64,000 nucleotides of DNA from Escherichia coli (GCF_003790525.1 NZ_CP033635.1); one strand, 5' to 3'; numbered from the stretch's first letter, positions 9,784 to 19,755 are shown. Numbers and translations: made by a program. The notes: generated by a model not told the origin, from the sequence alone.

Positions 9784-11448
9784 TTAAAACGTTTCCCAGT
9801 TCTCCCCGCTATCTGCCACGGCCATTTTACGCGGCGCAGCTGGCGTCACGGTTTTTACCACAGCCGATGTTTCACGCTGATGTTGCTGCTGTTGCTGAAT
9901 CCGGAACACTGCCACAGCTTCGGTCAGGCGACTGGCCTGCTCTTCCAGCGCGGCGGCGGCAGCGGCAGATTCTTCCACCAGCGCAGCGTTCTGTTGAGTT
10001 ACCCGGTCCATCTCAGCAACCGCTAATCCAACCTGATCGATACCACGGCTCTGCTCATCAGAAGCAGAAGCTATTTCGCCCATAATGTCCGTCACGCGGG
10101 TCACAGCGCTGACAATCTCTGCCATGGTTTCCCCGGCGCTTTCGACCAGCGTAGAGCCAACATCCACTTTGCCCACCGAGTCTTCAATCAGGCTTTTAAT
10201 TTCGCGAGCCGCCTGAGCGCTACGCTGGGCCAGATTACGCACTTCTCCCGCAACCACCGCAAAACCGCGCCCTTGCTCACCCGCGCGCGCTGCTTCAACC
10301 GCCGCGTTCAAAGCGAGAATATTGGTCTGGAAGGCAATGCCGTCAATTACGCTGATAATATCGGCGATTTTCTGCGAACTGGTGGAGATATCGCGCATGG
10401 TCTGCACCACGTTATCCACCACTTTGCCGCCGCGTTGCGCCGTTTCAGAAGCACTTAACGCCAGGTGGCTGGCCTGGCGCGCATTTTCGGCGTTCTGCTT
10501 CACCGTTGCGGTCAGTTGCTCCATGCTGGCTGCCGTCTCTTCCAGCGAAGCGGCCTGTTGCTCGGTGCGCGAAGAGAGATCGTTATTGCCGGTAGCGATT
10601 TCGCTGGCACCGCTATAGATGGCATTGGCCCCGTTGCGCACATCACCGACGGTACGCATCAGCTCTCCCTGCATATGGCGCAAACTCTCAGCCAGTTGCC
10701 CCATCTCATTAGAGCCATCCACCTCAATCGGTTTCACCAGATCGCCGCCTGCAATATGACGAATGCTGTCAATCAGGCGATTCATTGGCGCTACCAACGA
10801 GGCTTTAATACCGAACCAGACGGCGAAGATGACCGCCAGTACGACGATCATCACGCCCACCAGAATCCACATCGCCTGGCTGTAGGAGGCATTATTATCG
10901 CTGACGGCGATATCATAGAGCCGATCGTTTTGCTCCATGTAAGCCACATACTGCTTCTCGAAACCGTCCTGATATCCCTGGGTTGGCTGATCAAAGAACT
11001 CGTTGATTTTGCCTGCACCTAACAGTTGGATCAGCTCCGCCAGCGCATTGTGATAAATATCGTAATTACGTTTGATCTCTGCCGCTGCGGCGGTGCTCTG
11101 ACGCGGGTCACGCGGCAACGCTTCGTAATCCGCCCAGTTTTTTTCCGCCTGTTTCAGCGAAATACTGGCACTCTGCATCAGCTCAGCAACGGTTGAACCG
11201 CTACCAATATTATTCTGATCCATCATGTAGCGGATACCCGCGCGGTTGAGGGTGTTACGCGTCTGCAACAACGCGACCCAGCTGCCATTCAGCGTGGATT
11301 GCTGCTGGCGAATGGTTTGTAAAACAGTGAAATTTTCTTTGTCATTCTTTAAGGCATTAAAGAACAGACCGCCTGATGTCAGTTGTAAAAGGCCAAAAAC
11401 GGCCAAAACCAGCAGTAAGCTGGTCACGATCTTGATACGTTTTAACAT
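9784..11448 (-). CDS. tsr: Methyl-accepting chemotaxis protein I (serine chemoreceptor)
   Basis: ORF 9784..11463, start placed at MLKRIKIV (ATG at 11448); HAMP and MCP signalling domains, C-terminal NWETF pentapeptide. Confidence 0.95.
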
Positions 11449-11479
11449 GGTTTCTCTTTCCACTAGACAGATACACTGG

Positions 11480-11506
11480 TTGTCGGCCTGGTGGTGGAAA
11501 ACTTTA
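11480..11506 (-). promoter_or_regulatory. Sigma-28 (FliA) class-3 flagellar promoter for tsr
   Basis: Minus strand reads TAAAGTTT-N11-GCCGACAA (consensus TAAAGTTT-N11-GCCGATAA), about 32 nt upstream of tsr ATG. Confidence 0.7.
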
Positions 11507-11587
11507 TGCTGTGGAAAAGCGTCGGCACTGCTTTTGTTGCAGCAAACTTGCGTTTTTTGTGAGGGTCACACTCTATAGCGGCAGTTT

Positions 11588-12493
11588 ATGGTACAAAGTA
11601 TCAATCTTCTTCGAACCAGTGATACTCCTATGGCTTATAGCATCGATATCATCTCCTGCATTACCGAACGGTTTATGGCGTTAACAGCCACTGAAAAGCG
11701 TATCGCACAATTTATTCTTGATGACGTCTCTGCCGCAGTAGAGTTGCCAATTGCTGAGCTGGCACGGTTAACGCAAACCAGTCAGGCGTCGGTGACGCGT
11801 TTTGCCCGTGCACTGGGGTGCAAAGATGTCCGCGAGTTGAAAGTCAAACTGGCGCAGTCACTGGCTGTCGGGCAGCGGTTTATTCTCGATGTACCGGATC
11901 TTGACGGTGTTCAGGGGATCTACGAAGCGATTATTAGCGTGCTGGAGACGCATCGTCGTTCGCTGGATATGAATGCCATCAGCCAGGCTGTAAGCTGGTT
12001 AAGTCAGGCGCGGCAAATTCTTGCGTTAGGAACTGGCGGCGGTTCCACTATCTGTTCACAGGAGATTCAGTACCGTTTATTCCGTCTGGGGCTACCGGTG
12101 GTCAGTCAGAATGATGCCCTGATGATGAGAATGATGTGCTCGGCAGTCATGCCGCAGGATGTGGTGATTGTGCTTTCGCTGGGCGGTTATACACCGGAAA
12201 TCATCGAAAGTGCGGCAATCGCCCGTCAGTATGGCGCGCGTGTTATTGCCATTACGCCAGCACAAACACCGCTGGCGGAACAGGTGGATCTGGTATTGCC
12301 GTTACTGGTTCAGGAAAGTGATTACATCTTTAAGCCCACCCCTTCCCGCTACGCGATGTTAGCCATGGTCGATGTACTGGCAACAGAACTGGCAATGGCA
12401 AATAAAGCGCAGGCGAAAGATCGCCTGCGGCGGATAAAACTCGTGTTAGACAGCCACCGTGGGGGCGCTAACCGCCAGCCACTTGGCGATTAG
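11588..12493 (+). CDS. RpiR/MurR-family transcriptional regulator (HTH + SIS domain)
   Basis: 301-aa ORF; N-terminal HTH (EKRIAQFILDDVSAAVELPIAELARLTQTSQASVTRFARALG) and C-terminal SIS-like region; true start may be an internal Met. Confidence 0.7.
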   Translation: MVQSINLLRTSDTPMAYSIDIISCITERFMALTATEKRIAQFILDDVSAAVELPIAELARLTQTSQASVTRFARALGCKDVRELKVKLAQSLAVGQRFILDVPDLDGVQGIYEAIISVLETHRRSLDMNAISQAVSWLSQARQILALGTGGGSTICSQEIQYRLFRLGLPVVSQNDALMMRMMCSAVMPQDVVIVLSLGGYTPEIIESAAIARQYGARVIAITPAQTPLAEQVDLVLPLLVQESDYIFKPTPSRYAMLAMVDVLATELAMANKAQAKDRLRRIKLVLDSHRGGANRQPLGD

Positions 12494-12502
12494 CATTGTC
12501 GG

Positions 12503-13972
12503 TTATGCTTCTTCAGGTTTGGTGATCACGACACTCTGGTTTTCACGCTCATTGGTGATAATAGCCAAAGCTTCTTCCCGGCTGACCTGACTTGCTGGCG
12601 TTACCAACGTCACCAGTACGCCAGCGACCAGGCTGCCCAGCACTGACGGAATACACGGGTTACCCCAGTAAGCCAGCCAGTCGGCATTCATCAGCACCAC
12701 AATTGACATCACCATACCACTCACTAACGCCGCCAGCGCGCCCTGCCAGTTAAAGCGTAGCCAGAAGCGACCGAGAATCGAGCAGATAAACAACCCGGAC
12801 ATCAGCATCGAAATCATTTTGGTAATGTAGCTGATGATGTCGTTAGAGGTCAGAGCAAAGACCAGCGCCAGGCCAATAACAAAGGTCAACATCCAGCGTG
12901 AGTAAGTGATTGCCTTATCCTCCGGCGGCATTCTGCCGGTAATCATGGTGTAGACGTCGCGCATCATAATCGCCACCGCCGCGATGGCATCGGAGCTGGC
13001 AGAAGACATGGTGGCTGAAAGCCCGGCAATCAGCACCACCAGCCCAAGAATGGCAGGTAAGAAACTGGTCGCGAACAAGAAGGCGTAGTTGCTGTTTTCC
13101 AGATTTGGGTTCATGGTGAACGCCGCCATGCCGATAATGGCAGGCAAAATCGAGAAGAACAGATATAACACCCCAGTAATAACAAACGAACGGCGTACAG
13201 AGGGAACATCTTTACCCGAGTAAATACGCTGGCGATAAGACGGTGTTGCCAGCACACCTACGCCAATAACCAGTGCCAGCGAAAGCGCAGGCAGCACGCC
13301 CATTTTATCAATCGCAAACAGGCTCATCGCTTTTGGGTCCATCGCCTGCTCAATCGCACTCCAGCCGCCAACGTGAACAACGGCAAGAATAGCCATTAAT
13401 ATAAAGCCAAAGAACAGAATTAGGGCCTGAATAGTATCTGTCCACACTACCGCCGAATAACCGCCGATAATAACGTAAATCGCAAAAGCTAAGGCAATAA
13501 TTAATTTTGCCACCGTAAGATCAATACCTGTTGCCCAGGCAAGATACATACTTCCACCTAATATATGCGCCCCCAGCCAGCCAATAGAGGCAATAAATAT
13601 CATCAGGCCGACAATATTTTTAATTAAATGGCTGCCGCCAGTATAATAAGATATTTCTTCACTCATGGTCATAAATCGTAATTTACGTACCGGTGCAAAC
13701 AGCCACGCCACCAGTAATATACCTACGGCCCCACCGACGCCATAAAGCATTCCGGCCCAGCCATTGCTGTAGCCAAAGCCCACTGCGCCCATACTGGAAC
13801 CCGTGCCAACCATCGTGGCAACGGTTGACCCCAGCGTCAGAAACAGCGGCAGCGAACGCCCGCCCAGCAGAAAATCTTCTCCGCTTTTCTGATTACGAGA
13901 AACAAACCAACCAAGCCAAATCATGGCGATGGCATAAATAATAAAGCCGACTAAAAAGATATGACTGTTCAT
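12503..13972 (-). CDS. Sodium:solute symporter (SSS family) transporter
   Basis: 489-aa polytopic membrane protein; first gene of minus-strand unit with RidA and D-aminoacylase. Confidence 0.7.
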   Translation of the reverse strand: MNSHIFLVGFIIYAIAMIWLGWFVSRNQKSGEDFLLGGRSLPLFLTLGSTVATMVGTGSSMGAVGFGYSNGWAGMLYGVGGAVGILLVAWLFAPVRKLRFMTMSEEISYYTGGSHLIKNIVGLMIFIASIGWLGAHILGGSMYLAWATGIDLTVAKLIIALAFAIYVIIGGYSAVVWTDTIQALILFFGFILMAILAVVHVGGWSAIEQAMDPKAMSLFAIDKMGVLPALSLALVIGVGVLATPSYRQRIYSGKDVPSVRRSFVITGVLYLFFSILPAIIGMAAFTMNPNLENSNYAFLFATSFLPAILGLVVLIAGLSATMSSASSDAIAAVAIMMRDVYTMITGRMPPEDKAITYSRWMLTFVIGLALVFALTSNDIISYITKMISMLMSGLFICSILGRFWLRFNWQGALAALVSGMVMSIVVLMNADWLAYWGNPCIPSVLGSLVAGVLVTLVTPASQVSREEALAIITNERENQSVVITKPEEA

Positions 13973-14074
13973 AATTCACATCCTGCCAGTAGAGAGAAAT
14001 TAATGTAAGAGTTCCCGGAGTGCTGAATGTATTCAGCACTCAATTGCGGTCTGTTTTTTTAATTCTTAAATTTA

Positions 14075-14470
14075 TTAGCGGGTCGCGTTATAACAGGTCA
14101 CATCGACTTCGACTTTACAATCGACAACCAGATCAGCCACACAACAAATACGTGCAGGTGGATTCTCGCCAAAAAATTCTCTGAATACTTTATTAAATGA
14201 CTGGAAATAGCGGGCGTCGGTCAGGATCACTTTCACGTGAACCACATCCACCAGGCTATAACCGGCTTCAGTCATGATGTCGACACAGTTTTGAATCGCC
14301 AGTCGTGACTGTTCAACGATTCCGCCTTCTACCACTTCACCGTTTTTCATGGGTGTTTGCCCGGAGACGTACAGCCAGCCGCCCGCCTCAACCGCCCTGG
14401 CAAAAGGCAAATGCTGCCCGCCAGTGCCTGTTCCACCTTCCGTACCGTAACGTTTAATGCTCATATTCAC
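14075..14470 (-). CDS. RidA/YjgF-family reactive enamine/imine deaminase
   Basis: 131 aa, size and sequence typical of RidA/YjgF/TdcF family; 3 nt downstream of the aminoacylase gene. Confidence 0.7.
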   Translation of the reverse strand: MNMSIKRYGTEGGTGTGGQHLPFARAVEAGGWLYVSGQTPMKNGEVVEGGIVEQSRLAIQNCVDIMTEAGYSLVDVVHVKVILTDARYFQSFNKVFREFFGENPPARICCVADLVVDCKVEVDVTCYNATR

Positions 14471-14473
14471 TCC

Positions 14474-15925
14474 TTAATGTGAGGTCTGCCGGCGCAGGAA
14501 GCGTCCCGCACGGCCTGTAATATGTTTATCGGGACCATAGCTCATAACGCCGTTCACCATCACCGCCTCAATGCCATCTGCCGGGCGTTTGGGATCAGAA
14601 AAGCTGGCAACATCACGAATGGTTTGTGGATCGAACAACACCAGGTCCGCAAAATAGCCAACTTTCACCAGCCCACGCTGGGGCAGGCGAAAACGGCTGG
14701 CAGAAAGCCCGGTCATTTTGTGGATAGCCGTGGTCAGTGGGAATAAGCCTTCATCACGGCAATAGTGGCCCAGCACGCGAGGGAAGGCGCCCCATAAACG
14801 TGGATGCGGCATGGGATCATTGGGCAGGCCGTCAGAGCCAATCATACTGACCGGATAACTCAACACTCGGCGGACGTCGCGCTCGTCCATGTTGTAATAG
14901 ATAGCCCCGGCAGGCATTAGCAGCTTCGCGGCCTCCAGCATACTCATCTGCCAGTCGATGGCGATTTGCGCCAGTGTTTTCCCGGCCTGCTGCGGATGTG
15001 TTTGTGACCAGGTGATCACAATATCGAATTCGTCGGTGACTTGTTTGAGATCCAGCGTTGAAGAGCTGGCTGAGTAAGGGTAGACATCGCAGCCAATTTC
15101 CTGGTGTTGACGCATTTGGTCAAAAAAGGCCAACGTTTCTTTTGTCCGCCCCCAGTTTTTCGCCCCGGCGCATTTATGGTGGGAAACCACGACAGGCACT
15201 TTGCCATGACGCCCAATACGAAACGCCTCATCCAGGGCATCGAGAATCGGTTCAAATTCAGAACGCAGATGGGTGGTATAAACGCCCTTCTCACCGGCTA
15301 ATTCTTCCGCCAGCGCCATGACTTCTTCGGTAGTCGCCTGAAATGCCGTTGCATAGGCCAGCCCGGAACTTAACCCCAGCGCCCCCTGACTCAACGCCAG
15401 ACGTAAGTCGGCACGCATAGCGGCAATTTCATCCACCGTCGCCGGGCGAAACAGGTCGTCCATATGGTTATTACGCAGCGCCGTATGACCAATCAGCGTG
15501 CCAACGTTCAGTGACGGCCTGGCTGCTTCCACTGCCTGGGCATAGCTTTCAACGGTAGGATAAATAAAGTGCTCTGCTTCCCCCAACAGATTCATCGGGT
15601 CAGGAACTTCACCTTTCATTTTCGCCGACGCCGCACTAATCCCGCAGTTACCGACAATCACCGTAGTGATCCCCTGGCTGATCTTTGGCAGATATTCCGG
15701 GATGCGAATAACGTTGATATCGTCATGGGTATGAACGTCGATAAACCCTGGTGCCAGCACCCGCCCTTCCCCGTCAATGACCTGCTGCGCCGTAACGTTA
15801 AGCGCAGGGGCAATATCGACAATCCGATCACCTGTTATTGCCACGTCACCGCGAAATTCAGGGCCGCCGCTACCGTCGATAACGGTCACATTTTTGATTA
15901 ACCAGTCAACCTGCATGTTCGTCAC
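14474..15925 (-). CDS. N-acyl-D-amino-acid deacylase (D-aminoacylase), amidohydrolase superfamily
   Basis: 483 aa; metal-binding GFIDVHTHDD, and blocks PKISQGITTVIVGNCGIS, VPVVVSHHK, MIGSDGLP, HPRLWGAFPRVLGHY that match D-aminoacylases as I recall them. Confidence 0.8.
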   Translation of the reverse strand: MTNMQVDWLIKNVTVIDGSGGPEFRGDVAITGDRIVDIAPALNVTAQQVIDGEGRVLAPGFIDVHTHDDINVIRIPEYLPKISQGITTVIVGNCGISAASAKMKGEVPDPMNLLGEAEHFIYPTVESYAQAVEAARPSLNVGTLIGHTALRNNHMDDLFRPATVDEIAAMRADLRLALSQGALGLSSGLAYATAFQATTEEVMALAEELAGEKGVYTTHLRSEFEPILDALDEAFRIGRHGKVPVVVSHHKCAGAKNWGRTKETLAFFDQMRQHQEIGCDVYPYSASSSTLDLKQVTDEFDIVITWSQTHPQQAGKTLAQIAIDWQMSMLEAAKLLMPAGAIYYNMDERDVRRVLSYPVSMIGSDGLPNDPMPHPRLWGAFPRVLGHYCRDEGLFPLTTAIHKMTGLSASRFRLPQRGLVKVGYFADLVLFDPQTIRDVASFSDPKRPADGIEAVMVNGVMSYGPDKHITGRAGRFLRRQTSH

Positions 15926-16116
15926 TCCATTTCTGCAATGGTGACAAGTTAACCATTTACAAGGACGAAAAACAGTGGAAAACTACGCAAAACCCAGATG
16001 ATTTTATGATACTTTTATTCATAAATAATAAGATAAATAAACTAAATATTTATATTTCATTTAGTTACAAATGATACTCACATCCGATACGGTGAAAAAC
16101 TTAAAAGGTAAATGTT

Positions 16117-17337
16117 ATGAAATACCACTCAGAACCTCTGGTTCCCCATAAATCTGCCCTGATGCAAATGCCCGCAAATCTCCTTGCCGAAGATGTCTGT
16201 TTACCTGCCGCGATCATTAAAAAGCAGGCCCTGGAGAACAACATTACGTGGATGCAACGCTACGCTGACGCGCGCGGCGTTTCACTGGCACCGCACGGTA
16301 AAACCACCATGACGCCGTGGATTTTTCAGGCGCAGCAGGCGGCTGGTGCCTGGGCAATAGGTGTCGGTAGCGCATGGCAGGCTGGTGCGGCAATGGCGAG
16401 CGGTATTCAGCGAGTGCTGATGGTTAACCAGCTGGTCGGCAAGGCGAATATGCAGTTGATTGCCCAGTTGCAACGACATTACCCGACGGTCGATTTTATC
16501 AGCTGTATCGACAGCATTGAGAACGCCCGCGCTTTGTCTGCCTTTTTTGCCAGTCAGCAACAGACACTGAACGTGATGATTGAGTTGGGTGTCCCCGGCG
16601 GGCGCTGTGGTTGCCGCTCAAGGGATGCCGCACTGACACTGGCTAAACAGGCAGCCCAATTACCGGGGTTACGCCTGCGGGGGCTTGAGTTATATGAAGG
16701 CGTTTTACACGGTGACGATCCACAACCGCAGGTAGAAGCTCTGCTGCGGGATGCCGCACAACTGGCCTGTGATATGGCAAGTCTGGTTGATGGCGAGTTT
16801 ATTCTCACCGGAGCAGGCACGGTCTGGTATGACGTGGTGTGCAATATCTGGCTGGCGGCAGAAAAGCCTGATAACTGCCGCATTGTTATTCGCCCTGGCT
16901 GCTACATCACTCACGACACCGGGATCTACGACGCGGCACAACAACAGTTGCTTGCCCGTGATCCTGTGGCTTGCGATCTGGCAGGCGATCTCACATCTGC
17001 ACTGGAACTGGTCGCCATGGTGCAATCGGTGCCGGAAGCTGATCGTGCGGTGGTTAATTTTGGTAAGCGTGATTGCGCCTTCGACGCCGGACTGCCGCAA
17101 CCAGTCGCCCACTATCGCAACGGCAAATCACTGGCATTTGATCCACAGGCGATTCGCAGTACAGGCATTATGGATCAGCACTGCATGTTGCAGTTGGGTG
17201 CCGACAGCGACGTGCAAGTGGGGGATATTCTGGTGTTTGGCACATCGCATCCGTGCCTGACCTTCGACAAATGGAAAACGTTGTTATTGACTGATGACGA
17301 CTACAACGTACTGGCAGAATTAGACACTCTCTTCTAA
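16117..17337 (+). CDS. PLP-dependent D-amino-acid dehydratase/aldolase, alanine-racemase-N fold (DSD1-like)
   Basis: 406 aa; candidate PLP lysine in APHGKTTM; divergent from the aminoacylase unit across an AT-rich promoter region. Confidence 0.6.
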   Translation: MKYHSEPLVPHKSALMQMPANLLAEDVCLPAAIIKKQALENNITWMQRYADARGVSLAPHGKTTMTPWIFQAQQAAGAWAIGVGSAWQAGAAMASGIQRVLMVNQLVGKANMQLIAQLQRHYPTVDFISCIDSIENARALSAFFASQQQTLNVMIELGVPGGRCGCRSRDAALTLAKQAAQLPGLRLRGLELYEGVLHGDDPQPQVEALLRDAAQLACDMASLVDGEFILTGAGTVWYDVVCNIWLAAEKPDNCRIVIRPGCYITHDTGIYDAAQQQLLARDPVACDLAGDLTSALELVAMVQSVPEADRAVVNFGKRDCAFDAGLPQPVAHYRNGKSLAFDPQAIRSTGIMDQHCMLQLGADSDVQVGDILVFGTSHPCLTFDKWKTLLLTDDDYNVLAELDTLF

Positions 17338-17604
17338 GAACGCCCCTTCGGTTAATTATCGAAGGGGCATTTTTATTGTGATCTCAATCACATATCCACC
17401 CGACGAATAATTCTTGCCCAACCGCTCACCGCCATTCCTGACCGCTTACATCCCTAAAATAACCACTCAGTTATTTACCTTACTTTACGCGCGCGTAACT
17501 CTGGCAACATCACTGCAGGATAGCGGTCAATTTACCTCCTCAAACGCAACGCAAACCTAGAACGGCTTCGGCCAACTATTAATCAATACATGCCAGGTTT
17601 TACT

Positions 17605-19755
17605 ATGGATACTAAAAAGATATTCAAGCACATACCCTGGGTGATTCTCGGAATCATCGGTGCATTCTGCCTCGCGGTAGTTGCATTACGTCGGGGGGAG
17701 CACGTCAGTGCCCTGTGGATCGTGGTCGCCTCTGTGTCGGTGTATCTGGTGGCTTATCGCTACTACAGTCTGTACATCGCCCAGAAGGTGATGAAACTCG
17801 ACCCCACGCGCGCGACGCCTGCGGTTATTAACAACGACGGTCTGAACTATGTTCCGACCAACCGTTACGTGTTGTTTGGTCACCACTTCGCCGCTATCGC
17901 CGGTGCTGGTCCGCTGGTTGGTCCGGTTCTCGCCGCGCAGATGGGCTACCTGCCTGGCACGCTGTGGCTGCTGGCGGGGGTAGTGCTGGCCGGTGCGGTA
18001 CAGGACTTTATGGTGCTGTTTATCTCCTCTCGCCGTAACGGCGCATCTCTCGGTGAGATGATCAAAGAAGAGATGGGACCAGTACCGGGGACTATCGCGC
18101 TGTTTGGCTGTTTCTTAATCATGATCATCATCCTTGCCGTCCTGGCGCTGATTGTGGTTAAAGCCCTGGCCGAAAGTCCGTGGGGTGTCTTCACCGTTTG
18201 CTCAACCGTACCGATTGCGCTGTTTATGGGTATCTACATGCGCTTTATTCGTCCGGGGCGTGTGGGTGAAGTCTCTGTCATTGGTATCGTGCTGCTGGTT
18301 GCCTCTATCTACTTCGGTGGCGTGATTGCTCACGATCCGTACTGGGGTCCGGCACTGACCTTTAAAGACACCACCATTACCTTCGCGCTGATTGGCTATG
18401 CGTTTGTTTCCGCACTGCTGCCAGTGTGGCTGATCCTCGCACCGCGCGACTATCTGGCAACCTTCCTGAAAATCGGCGTTATCGTCGGCCTGGCGCTGGG
18501 TATCGTGGTGCTGAACCCGGAACTGAAAATGCCTGCGATGACCCAGTACATTGACGGTACTGGCCCGCTGTGGAAAGGCGCTCTGTTCCCGTTCCTGTTC
18601 ATCACCATCGCCTGTGGTGCGGTATCTGGCTTCCACGCGCTGATCTCTTCCGGTACGACGCCGAAACTGCTGGCTAACGAAACCGACGCGCGTTTCATTG
18701 GCTACGGCGCAATGCTGATGGAGTCCTTCGTGGCGATTATGGCGCTGGTTGCTGCGTCCATCATCGAACCGGGTCTTTACTTCGCGATGAACACCCCGCC
18801 TGCTGGCCTTGGCATCACCATGCCTAACCTGCATGAAATGGGTGGCGAGAACGCGCCGATCATCATGGCGCAGCTGAAAGACGTTACCGCACACGCGGCA
18901 GCGACCGTCAGCTCCTGGGGCTTCGTGATTTCGCCAGAGCAGATCCTGCAAACAGCGAAAGATATTGGTGAGCCTTCTGTCCTGAACCGTGCAGGTGGTG
19001 CGCCGACGCTGGCGGTAGGTATCGCTCACGTGTTCCACAAAGTGCTGCCGATGGCTGACATGGGCTTCTGGTATCACTTCGGTATTCTGTTCGAAGCCCT
19101 GTTCATCCTGACCGCGCTGGATGCGGGTACCCGTTCTGGCCGCTTTATGCTGCAAGACCTGCTGGGTAACTTCATCCCGTTCCTGAAAAAAACCGACTCT
19201 CTGGTTGCCGGTATCATCGGTACTGCGGGCTGTGTGGGTCTGTGGGGGTACCTGCTGTATCAGGGCGTGGTCGATCCGCTGGGCGGCGTTAAGAGCCTGT
19301 GGCCGCTGTTCGGTATCTCCAACCAGATGCTGGCAGCCGTAGCGCTGGTACTGGGCACCGTTGTGCTGATTAAGATGAAGCGCACCCAATACATCTGGGT
19401 AACTGTTGTTCCGGCTGTATGGCTGCTTATCTGCACCACCTGGGCGCTGGGCCTGAAACTGTTCAGCACCAACCCGCAGATGGAAGGCTTCTTCTACATG
19501 GCAAGCCAGTACAAAGAGAAGATTGCTAACGGTACTGACCTGACGGCACAGCAGATTGCCAACATGAACCACATCGTTGTGAACAACTACACCAACGCGG
19601 GCCTGAGTATTCTGTTCCTGATTGTGGTGTACAGCATCATCTTCTACGGTTTCAAAACCTGGCTGAAGGTGCGTAACAGCGACAAACGTACTGACAAAGA
19701 AACTCCGTACGTTCCAATCCCGGAAGGCGGCGTGAAGATCTCTTCGCACCACTAA
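17605..19755 (+). CDS. btsT: Pyruvate/H+ symporter BtsT (CstA family)
   Basis: ORF 17590..19755; start set at MDTKKIFKHIPW to give 716 aa; recognised as YjiY/BtsT. Confidence 0.95.
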   Translation: MDTKKIFKHIPWVILGIIGAFCLAVVALRRGEHVSALWIVVASVSVYLVAYRYYSLYIAQKVMKLDPTRATPAVINNDGLNYVPTNRYVLFGHHFAAIAGAGPLVGPVLAAQMGYLPGTLWLLAGVVLAGAVQDFMVLFISSRRNGASLGEMIKEEMGPVPGTIALFGCFLIMIIILAVLALIVVKALAESPWGVFTVCSTVPIALFMGIYMRFIRPGRVGEVSVIGIVLLVASIYFGGVIAHDPYWGPALTFKDTTITFALIGYAFVSALLPVWLILAPRDYLATFLKIGVIVGLALGIVVLNPELKMPAMTQYIDGTGPLWKGALFPFLFITIACGAVSGFHALISSGTTPKLLANETDARFIGYGAMLMESFVAIMALVAASIIEPGLYFAMNTPPAGLGITMPNLHEMGGENAPIIMAQLKDVTAHAAATVSSWGFVISPEQILQTAKDIGEPSVLNRAGGAPTLAVGIAHVFHKVLPMADMGFWYHFGILFEALFILTALDAGTRSGRFMLQDLLGNFIPFLKKTDSLVAGIIGTAGCVGLWGYLLYQGVVDPLGGVKSLWPLFGISNQMLAAVALVLGTVVLIKMKRTQYIWVTVVPAVWLLICTTWALGLKLFSTNPQMEGFFYMASQYKEKIANGTDLTAQQIANMNHIVVNNYTNAGLSILFLIVVYSIIFYGFKTWLKVRNSDKRTDKETPYVPIPEGGVKISSHH

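Follow-up and report, generated by a model that had tools for sequence, protein, structure and literature searches.

The region between tsr and btsT (positions 11,449 to 17,604) of a 64,000-nucleotide stretch of Escherichia coli DNA (GCF_003790525.1, NZ_CP033635.1; the whole stretch is called the window below) carries five genes which, by analogy with the ong pathway of Pseudoalteromonas prydzensis, we take with a probability of roughly 0.8 to be a minimal catabolic module for an N-acetyl-2-amino-2-deoxy-D-aldonic acid, namely 2-acetamido-2-deoxy-D-gluconate (GlcNAc1A) and/or its C4 epimer, N-acetyl-D-galactosaminate (GalNAc1A). The five-gene form has already been tabulated for E. coli, and the cluster is most likely a truncated member of the known ong kind and not a new system for D-amino acids, as had been proposed in the original prediction made from this DNA. 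For the annotation, the RefSeq record of E. coli SMS-3-5 (NC_010498.1), which shows 100% identity over 6126 bp, was converted to window coordinates. It concurs with the listing of the open reading frames (ORFs) in that five intact genes lie between tsr and btsT (Table 1); the set foreseen there, with a divergent DSD1-like gene, was thus recovered complete by the ORFs, RefSeq and Pfam.

The ong pathway serves oxidative chitin utilisation in P. prydzensis ACAM 620 (Jiang et al. 2022, PMC9537276). It starts from chitin oxidised by lytic polysaccharide monooxygenases (LPMO), which yields GlcNAc1A; the sugar acid is imported by OngIT, a sodium:solute symporter (SSS), deacetylated by OngB, the first cytoplasmic enzyme of the pathway, and deaminated by the pyridoxal phosphate (PLP) enzyme OngC to 2-keto-3-deoxygluconate and NH3, after which KdgK phosphorylates the keto-deoxy acid, while the RpiR repressor OngR controls the operon. 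The components are each backed by knockouts or enzyme assays, and ongB is essential for growth of P. prydzensis on GlcNAc1A (PMC9537276). The E. coli region encodes exactly the counterparts of OngR, OngIT, OngD, OngB and OngC, a gene-for-gene match. The route envisaged in the original prediction, i.e. import, deacylation, PLP-dependent elimination or deamination and the action of RidA, has the same logic as that shown experimentally for the homologous ong cluster, and its use of the SIS domain of the regulator as a pointer to a sugar-related substrate was a good guess. In the Supplementary Data of the P. prydzensis study, 13 E. coli strains, E. fergusonii ECD227 and an Escherichia sp. with the five-gene form are entered as 'ong cluster +'; the same table gives these Escherichia '-' for lpmo, ongOT-1, kdgK and ongA, and SMS-3-5 is not among the names (PMC9537276).

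In phmmer searches against the PDB the amidohydrolase matched KleDacyl best (9G5M and 9GV8, E=1e-281), followed by P. prydzensis OngB (PpOngB; 9KB1, E=4e-167) together with a 'carbohydrate de-N-acetylated protein' (9KB3, about 1e-166), and in a third tier by the classical D-aminoacylase 1M7J (E=4e-136). The identity of the E. coli protein is 84% to KleDacyl and 54% to PpOngB. PfOngB, which is 57% identical to PpOngB, was assayed as GlcNAc1A-specific, and since the value for the E. coli enzyme is similar, it was counted for the ong assignment. The residues binding GlcNAc1A and those discriminating OngB from the D-aminoacylases have been defined by Wang et al. 2025 (PMC12017989), and 83 OngB-like sequences were aligned together with those of PpOngB, KleDacyl and the D-aminoacylase of A. 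faecalis (AfDam). Of the 18 metal, catalytic and substrate-binding positions of PpOngB, 17 have the same residue in the E. coli protein: the metal ligands C97, H222 and H252, the catalytic D368, the ligands of the acetamido and carboxylate groups (L116, Y194, K254, Y285, S291, L370 and R379), those of the hydroxyl groups (E226, S290, S292 and Q298) and the small pocket residues A193 and A256 are all kept, and the sole exception is Gly348, which is replaced by Asn. At the discriminating positions, the AfDam residues are Phe, Met, Gly, Thr, Arg (as aligned here) and Met. The hydrophobic D-aminoacylase pocket (Phe191, Met254, Leu298 and Met346, with Thr at 292) is absent from the E. coli protein, where Ala, Ala, Gln and Asn, and Ser at 292, are found; the Gln at position 298 is that of PpOngB, in place of the hydrophobic Leu of AfDam-like enzymes. 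GlcNAc1A is not hydrolysed by AfDam, nor are N-acetyl-D-amino acids by PpOngB. Judged by these residues, the E. coli deacylase is most likely an ongB-like, metal-dependent N-acetyl-hexosaminate deacetylase.

The salvage of an ordinary N-acyl-D-amino acid (N-acetyl-D-Ser, -Thr, -Met or a peptidoglycan-derived compound), in which the PLP enzyme and RidA would degrade the D-amino acid released, has to be weighed here, since KleDacyl was published as a 'D-acylase' for biocatalysis and hydrolyses N-acetyl-D-Met, -D-Phe, -D,L-Trp and -D,L-2-aminobutyrate (ABA) and no L-isomers (PMC12149444). The deamination of D-Ser and D-Thr by P. prydzensis OngC (PpOngC) speaks for the same salvage. However, the Km values of KleDacyl range from 19 to above 50 mM (32 mM for N-acetyl-D-Met and 19 mM for N-acetyl-D-Phe), and kcat/Km is 1.5-2.8 min-1 mM-1, at best about 47 M-1 s-1 (PMC12149444), whereas PpOngB acts on GlcNAc1A with a kcat/Km of 1.6 mM-1 s-1 (PMC12017989); the best value of KleDacyl is roughly 34-fold lower, which is the level of a side activity. 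The exact 479-residue KleDacyl sequence is encoded within an ong-like cluster of Klebsiella pneumoniae (L087/L088, 6580-13844; L numbers are our locus labels), where the operon neighbours of its gene are those for RidA, an SSS transporter, a DGOK kinase and an aldolase. Because of the weak kinetics, the assays made without sugar acids and the place of the gene in an ong-like cluster, the D-acylase activity of KleDacyl is best read as a side activity, and its operon suggests that its physiological substrate is probably a sugar acid absent from the published assays. The exact sequence also occurs in 50,880 blocks of the index of the genome collection.

Other observations argue against D-amino acid salvage as well. 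A dehydratase-type PLP enzyme needs a beta leaving group, which D-Met, D-Phe and D-Trp lack, as is established chemistry; the keto-deoxy-sugar-acid kinase and aldolase of the orthologous operons would have no role; and in Pseudomonas ongR and ongB are paired with a GntP-family permease. Taken with the substitutions in the AfDam pocket, this makes such salvage very unlikely. The polar deacylase cavity, the poor activity of KleDacyl on N-acetyl-D-amino acids and the kinase and aldolase genes of the orthologous clusters suggest that the substrate is oxidised GlcNAc or GalNAc, an N-acetyl-2-amino-2-deoxy-aldonic acid, and the original prediction's N-acyl-D-amino acid or peptidoglycan-derived compound was accordingly not supported.

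The OngC-like protein combines the Pfam domains Ala_racemase_N and D-ser_dehydrat, the DSD1-like fold-type III architecture, and its top PDB match is 3GWQ, a 'D-serine deaminase' from Burkholderia (E=7e-105). The predicted PLP lysine is K62 in a PHGK motif, aligned to the lysine of D-threonine aldolase, and an HPC motif with H378 and C380 was read from the sequence; we presume this C-terminal His/Cys motif to be the metal ligand, as in the family. The domains, the lysine and the C-terminal motif thus place the protein among the DSD1-like PLP enzymes. No evidence was obtained for the aldolase function that had also been considered for it, and the homologue OngC is a deaminase. PpOngC acts on 2-amino-2-deoxy-D-gluconate (GlcN1A) in addition to the D-amino acids mentioned above. 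A fold-type III PLP deaminase gene adjoins ongB in E. coli, the comparison being made with the OngC proteins of the Vibrio clusters and not with PpOngC; the E. coli protein is 82% identical to that of Leclercia.

A RidA protein, an SSS transporter and an RpiR regulator are likewise present in the cluster. The top NCBIfam matches of the regulator are the HexR/MurR/RpiR models, all under the curated cut-offs, and it is 51-55% identical to OngR of the Vibrio clusters and 78-86% identical to its Enterobacterales orthologues. PpOngR is a demonstrated repressor (PMC9537276), and by analogy the E. coli protein is a probable one. The symporter matches TIGR00813 (sss superfamily) in NCBIfam and is 68-69% identical to the SSS proteins of the Vibrio ong clusters; PpOngIT is essential and GlcNAc1A-specific (PMC9537276). 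The RidA protein matches TIGR00004 (Rid family) in NCBIfam, its conserved 'PAR' arginine is residue 105 by alignment to the RidA homologues in the PDB, and its identity to OngD of the Vibrio clusters is 84-86%; PpOngD is essential in vivo, without a defined role (PMC9537276). None of the five proteins attained the curated cut-off of an NCBIfam model, therefore their RefSeq names hold only at the family level.

The Vibrio clusters are syntenic with the E. coli cluster for all five genes, their OngB proteins are 61-62% identical to that of E. coli, and they also encode KdgK, Eda and a lactonase-like protein, and have a large gene downstream. A marine metagenomic contig has the published operon order, OngC-OngR-OngB-OngD-OngIT-PfkB kinase-GH20-lactonase, and the large downstream gene of Vibrio sits at the position of the GH20 hexosaminidase in this cluster.

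The mechanism proposed for E. coli follows by homology from P. prydzensis, where deacetylation, PLP-dependent deamination and the need for every gene have been shown. The free sugar acid would cross the outer membrane via general porins and be taken up across the inner membrane by OngIT. OngB, as a mononuclear Cys/His/His metallo-amidohydrolase, would remove the acetyl group, giving acetate and a D-configured 2-amino-aldonate. OngC would then eliminate the C3 hydroxyl and release an enamine/imine, the hydrolysis of which to a 2-keto-3-deoxy-hexonate and NH3 would be accelerated by OngD. Since neither a kinase nor an aldolase is encoded in the cluster, the keto-deoxy acid must be completed by core enzymes, which would be KdgK/Eda for the gluco form or DgoK/DgoA for the galacto form, yielding pyruvate and glyceraldehyde-3-phosphate. 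In the absence of the substrate or a metabolite, OngR would repress both divergent units, ongC and ongB-ongD-ongIT. The genes kdgK and eda belong to the core of E. coli.

Several points weigh against this assignment. The closest characterised enzyme, KleDacyl, has been assayed on N-acetyl-D-amino acids only, with weak, D-specific hydrolysis, and OngC is only 44-46% identical to the Vibrio OngC proteins that stand in for PpOngC. No kinase ORF, and hence no PfkB-type kdgK, lies in the tsr-btsT interval, and within the cluster there is no GH20 hexosaminidase OngA, no TonB-dependent receptor OngOT-1 and no AA10 LPMO, so that the published system is not complete here; without this front end E. coli could scavenge the monomer only. 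No experiment on any E. coli or enterobacterial cluster of this type was found in the literature search. DgoR responds to D-galactonate, and should the product be 2-keto-3-deoxygalactonate, the core dgo operon would not necessarily be induced.

The closest orthologous clusters contain two extra genes 3' of ongIT, co-directional and abutting or overlapping. This seven-gene form was seen in eight Enterobacterales (Leclercia, Enterobacteriaceae bacterium RIT691, Cedecea, three Rahnella, Enterobacter sp. R1 and Buttiauxella) and also in K. pneumoniae, C. freundii and a record named Salmonella. The first product is a kinase of the DGOK family (PF05035; PDB 3R1X, 2-oxo-3-deoxygalactonate kinase, E=2.9e-92); it has no NCBIfam match at E <= 1e-10 and hence none to the KdgK model. 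The second is a DgoA aldolase, matching the E. coli 2-keto-3-deoxy-6-phosphogalactonate (KDPGal) aldolase 2V81 with E=1.4e-85 and Eda (1EUA) with 6e-12 only; it scores 302 bits against NF006600 (cut-off 207), and in Leclercia it is roughly 68% identical to E. coli DgoA (2V81) in an ungapped alignment. The DgoK/DgoA pairing was found in every sampled orthologous cluster having a kinase and an aldolase, and the Paraburkholderia clusters are of the same type; a PfkB-type KdgK, with or without Eda, occurs in Vibrio, the marine metagenome contig, Pseudomonas entomophila and Andreprevotia.

The kinase type goes together with the one exchanged residue of the deacetylase site. Asn stands at OngB cavity position 348 in all 13 DgoK/DgoA loci, and also in E. 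coli, KleDacyl and each of the 120 closest database homologues, against Gly or Cys in PpOngB and all KdgK loci. Only three columns of the alignment separate the two groups, 348 among them; the DgoK/DgoA side of this association represents only two independent clades. A wider sampling gave only three representatives at 50% identity with the OngB signature, and one of these was confirmed as the KdgK type; another, on a metagenome contig with planctomycete-like neighbours, has Asn348 but neither a kinase gene nor ongC close by, and is thus uninformative here. Since OngC does not alter C4 or C5 during the elimination, enzymes of the DgoK/DgoA type at the end of the route imply a galacto-configured intermediate, and the substrate may thus be N-acetyl-D-galactosaminate. 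On this comparative evidence, the specialisation of the enterobacterial branch, E. coli included, for the conversion of N-acetyl-D-galactosaminate through D-galactosaminate to 2-keto-3-deoxy-D-galactonate has somewhat less than an even chance of being correct; E. coli would then complete the pathway with its core dgoK and dgoA. The kinase and aldolase pair is present at this locus in none of the 5426 complete E. coli genomes, and a dgoA-like match was found in 5021 of them, therefore E. coli could complete either route in trans. As a matter of speculation, GalNAc1A could plausibly stem from mucin GalNAc that is set free and then oxidised, by chemical or enzymatic means, in the gut. The literature search found neither a paper on galactosaminate catabolism nor a published catabolic route for N-acetyl-D-galactosaminate. 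The real novelty may lie in the comparative evidence for the use of the galacto epimer, which, if true, would mean a previously undescribed route for oxidised GalNAc and a specificity switch in one residue (348 Gly/Cys to Asn).

Variants of the cluster were also observed. In most Pseudomonas genomes (L015-L079) only ongR-ongB was found, with 61-64% identity and Gly348; at the one locus checked (L023, 1571-5309) the GntP-family permease gene lies upstream, and ongC, ongD and SSS genes are not nearby. Four-gene variants with ongC, ongB-ongD and ongR and without the SSS gene occur in Enterobacter sp. Ag1 (L011), Cedecea neteri (L012) and Enterobacteriaceae RIT693 (L020), the last having a GH1 beta-glucosidase, a IIC component of a cellobiose-type phosphotransferase system (PTS) and a metal ABC transporter as neighbours. 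A distant OngB (52% identical, Asn348) is encoded on a metagenome scaffold with planctomycete-like neighbours (L091, 5999-13244), together with RidA and SSS genes and adjoining a GDSL-lipase/BNR (sialidase-like) protein and a TRAP transporter; neither ongC nor a kinase gene is nearby, and the deacetylase may have a different use there.

The cluster is present in near-full length in 193 of the 5426 complete E. coli genomes (3.6%), always on the chromosome and with 97.8-100% identity, and only one of the 194 matches is visibly degraded. Between SMS-3-5 and FMU073332 the ratio of nonsynonymous to synonymous divergence (dN/dS) of the ong genes is 0.02-0.11, which indicates purifying selection within E. 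coli; their dS is 0.03-0.10, versus 0.12-0.13 for the flanking tsr and lgoT. The degraded copy, in strain HH45 (L085, 4989-7282), has a truncated and frameshifted ongB and a frameshifted ongC, with ongR, ongIT and ongD deleted, and shows ongoing loss by deletion.

The cluster could also be regarded as a decaying remnant in E. coli, which has lost its own kinase and aldolase, supports no growth and is vanishing lineage by lineage. The lack of the DgoK-like and DgoA-like genes of Citrobacter, Leclercia and Klebsiella, the stop codons of ongIT and ongR separated by only 9 bp, the small share of the genomes that keep the cluster and the HH45 remnant would all suit such decay. The five ORFs of SMS-3-5 are intact, however, degradation is as rare as stated, the dN/dS values are those of purifying selection, and with dgoA-like genes widespread and kdgK and eda in the core, completion in trans is possible; a mere remnant is therefore very improbable indeed. 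That free D-glucosaminate, D-galactosaminate, D-serine or D-threonine is the substrate and the deacylase is dispensable or unrelated, as the direct action of OngC on GlcN1A, D-Ser and D-Thr and the use of D-glucosaminate by Salmonella through a different (PTS) route might suggest, is extremely unlikely, since all lineages sampled have ongB at the head of a conserved ongB-ongD-ongIT operon, P. prydzensis cannot grow on GlcNAc1A without this gene, and in Pseudomonas it accompanies ongR and a permease gene even where ongC is missing.

The adjacency of tsr and btsT in K-12, on which the original prediction relied, was confirmed in strain C600, where the two genes are divergent with a gap of 377 bp. 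A K-12-specific segment of 135 bp stands there in place of window positions 11509-17421; it has no match in the cluster, in the strain carrying the hpa genes or in Leclercia, and there is no scar at the K-12 junction, thus the junction itself cannot tell loss from gain. The claim that the genes had been inserted was not upheld by the comparison of the tsr-btsT site. No integrase, transposase or tRNA genes and no flanking direct repeats were found at the locus, Rfam gave no matches in the region, and the GC content of the cluster (0.43-0.58) is like that of the flanks. In Citrobacter freundii the same site has the order btsT / ongC / ongB-ongD-ongIT-kinase-aldolase / ongR / tsr / lgoT, in Leclercia the order is hpa genes / ongC ... 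ongR / tsr / lgoT, and in K. pneumoniae the cluster lies between lgoT/lgoR and a hydroxyproline or hpa cluster. In neighbour-joining trees the E. coli OngB, OngC and OngD fall within the Enterobacterales clade, beside Leclercia. Since the site is the same in other Enterobacteriaceae, marks of mobility are lacking and dS is close to that of the flanks, the locus is probably ancestral in the Enterobacteriaceae and was lost from K-12 and most E. coli, instead of being a recently inserted genomic island.

The content of the tsr-btsT gap (window positions 11449-17604) differs between E. coli strains: nothing fills it in K-12 and 536, SMS-3-5 has only ong there, NCTC9087 (the only strain where the hpa site was checked) has the hpa cluster, and FMU073332 has ong with a hydroxyproline-catabolism cluster of roughly 10 kb. 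Of the 5426 genomes, 2072 have hpaBC, 193 have ong and 35 have the hydroxyproline cluster, and in Klebsiella and Leclercia several of these modules stand side by side. On the simplest reading, tsr-btsT is an old composite catabolic locus trimmed differently by lineage, so that alternative catabolic modules (hpa, hydroxyproline, ong) would occupy one chromosomal site through differential loss. E. coli relies on sugar acids in the gut, which the cluster fits, and the module would offer an extra sugar-acid niche to a minority of the species; many poultry and human extraintestinal isolates are among the records listed.

The divergent ongB-ongC spacer of 200 bp contains three blocks which are invariant or nearly so across 14 Enterobacterales loci. 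Each is single-copy in the window and in the orthologous loci occurs only at the ongB-ongC position, and the blocks are candidate promoter or OngR operator elements. They have no second copy upstream of ongR or ongIT, they were not found in the Vibrio, Pseudomonas and Burkholderia loci, and no clear palindrome was seen in them, so no OngR operator could be defined. An AT-rich palindrome at 16034-16067 was rejected as the operator, as it is not kept across genera, and a promoter scan gave fewer sites than the shuffled controls. The hairpin in the ongD-ongIT spacer has the same stem in Citrobacter with a compensatory T/A to C/G change, and unrelated stable hairpins stand there in other genera; possible roles are attenuation, mRNA stabilisation or processing within the operon.

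The start codons in Table 1 are those of RefSeq. The mechanically derived ORFs begin 6-42 nt upstream of them for tsr (11463/11448), ongR (11588/11630), ongD (14470/14464), ongB (15925/15916) and btsT (17590/17605, ORF/RefSeq), consequently the OngB residue numbers in the PDB alignments are offset by 3 from those of RefSeq. The boundaries given in the original prediction were the mechanical ORF starts. Further along, a second variable junction lies 3' of yjiA (L001, 13843-14126; window from about 21306 onward), annotated as '3'-5' exonuclease' in SMS-3-5; mrr is found at the position downstream of yjiA in HH45 and FMU073332, with hsdR further on in HH45.

Table 1. Genes and non-coding features of the tsr-btsT region in window coordinates.
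Feature	Position	Strand	Basis or remark
tsr	9784-11448	-	RefSeq
ongR-like MurR/RpiR regulator (HTH_6 + SIS)	11630-12493	+	RefSeq coding sequence
ongIT-like sodium:solute symporter	12503-13972	-	RefSeq coding sequence
Perfect 11-bp inverted repeat (hairpin), ongD-ongIT spacer	14018-14041	-	folds in mRNA orientation
ongD-like RidA family protein	14075-14464	-	RefSeq coding sequence
ongB-like amidohydrolase, D-aminoacylase fold	14474-15916	-	phmmer vs PDB
Three conserved blocks, ongB-ongC intergenic	15946-15963, 15971-15992, 16007-16021		alignment of 14 Enterobacterales regions
ongC-like 'amino acid deaminase', fold-type III PLP enzyme	16117-17337	+ (divergent from ongB)	RefSeq; Pfam
Strong intrinsic terminator after ongC	17342-17368	+	11-bp stem, 7 GC pairs, then T-run
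btsT	17605-19755	+	RefSeq

When compared with known systems, the PLP enzyme has the domain architecture and the PLP lysine in common with the DSD1-like enzymes (D-serine dehydratase, D-threonine aldolase, D-threo-3-hydroxyaspartate dehydratase and BhcC), but the members of this group in the PDB are distant from it (E=1e-14 to 1e-28), the BhcC model gives 103 bits against a cut-off of 690, and the OngC clade, unlike the other DSD1-like enzymes, acts on amino-aldonic acids. The D-aminoacylases of the AfDam type differ from the E. coli deacylase in their pocket, which is formed by Phe, Met, Thr, Leu and Met in place of the polar set Ala190, Ala253, Ser289, Gln295 and Asn345 (ORF numbering). The D-glucosaminate pathway of Salmonella (dgaABCDEF) resembles the ong-type route in that an amino-aldonic acid is turned into a keto-deoxy sugar acid phosphate, and differs from it by uptake through the PTS with phosphorylation first, an unrelated ammonia-lyase and the lack of a deacetylase. 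The dgoRKADT and kdgK/eda pathways of E. coli, encoded outside the cluster under DgoR or KdgR, supply the phosphorylation and the aldol cleavage of 2-keto-3-deoxy-hexonate that the module lacks.

A closely related system is the seven-gene cluster of K. pneumoniae, C. freundii, Leclercia and Rahnella, where the orthologues are 73-95% identical and in the same order as in E. coli, and the DGOK-family kinase and DgoA-type aldolase genes follow the transporter gene; E. coli is without this pair here. The P. prydzensis ong cluster shares the same five core functions, with the OngB identity and active-site conservation given above, and the E. coli cluster differs from it by the absence of the TonB-dependent receptor, the GH20 hexosaminidase, kdgK and the LPMO, and by the replacement G348N in OngB. 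The gene order differs as well: E. coli has a solitary ongC, an ongB-ongD-ongIT operon and a convergent ongR, while P. prydzensis has ongCRBD and ongIT-kdgK-ongA. Finally, the nearest orthologues of the E. coli cluster use DgoK/DgoA, whereas the P. prydzensis system uses KdgK/KdgA.

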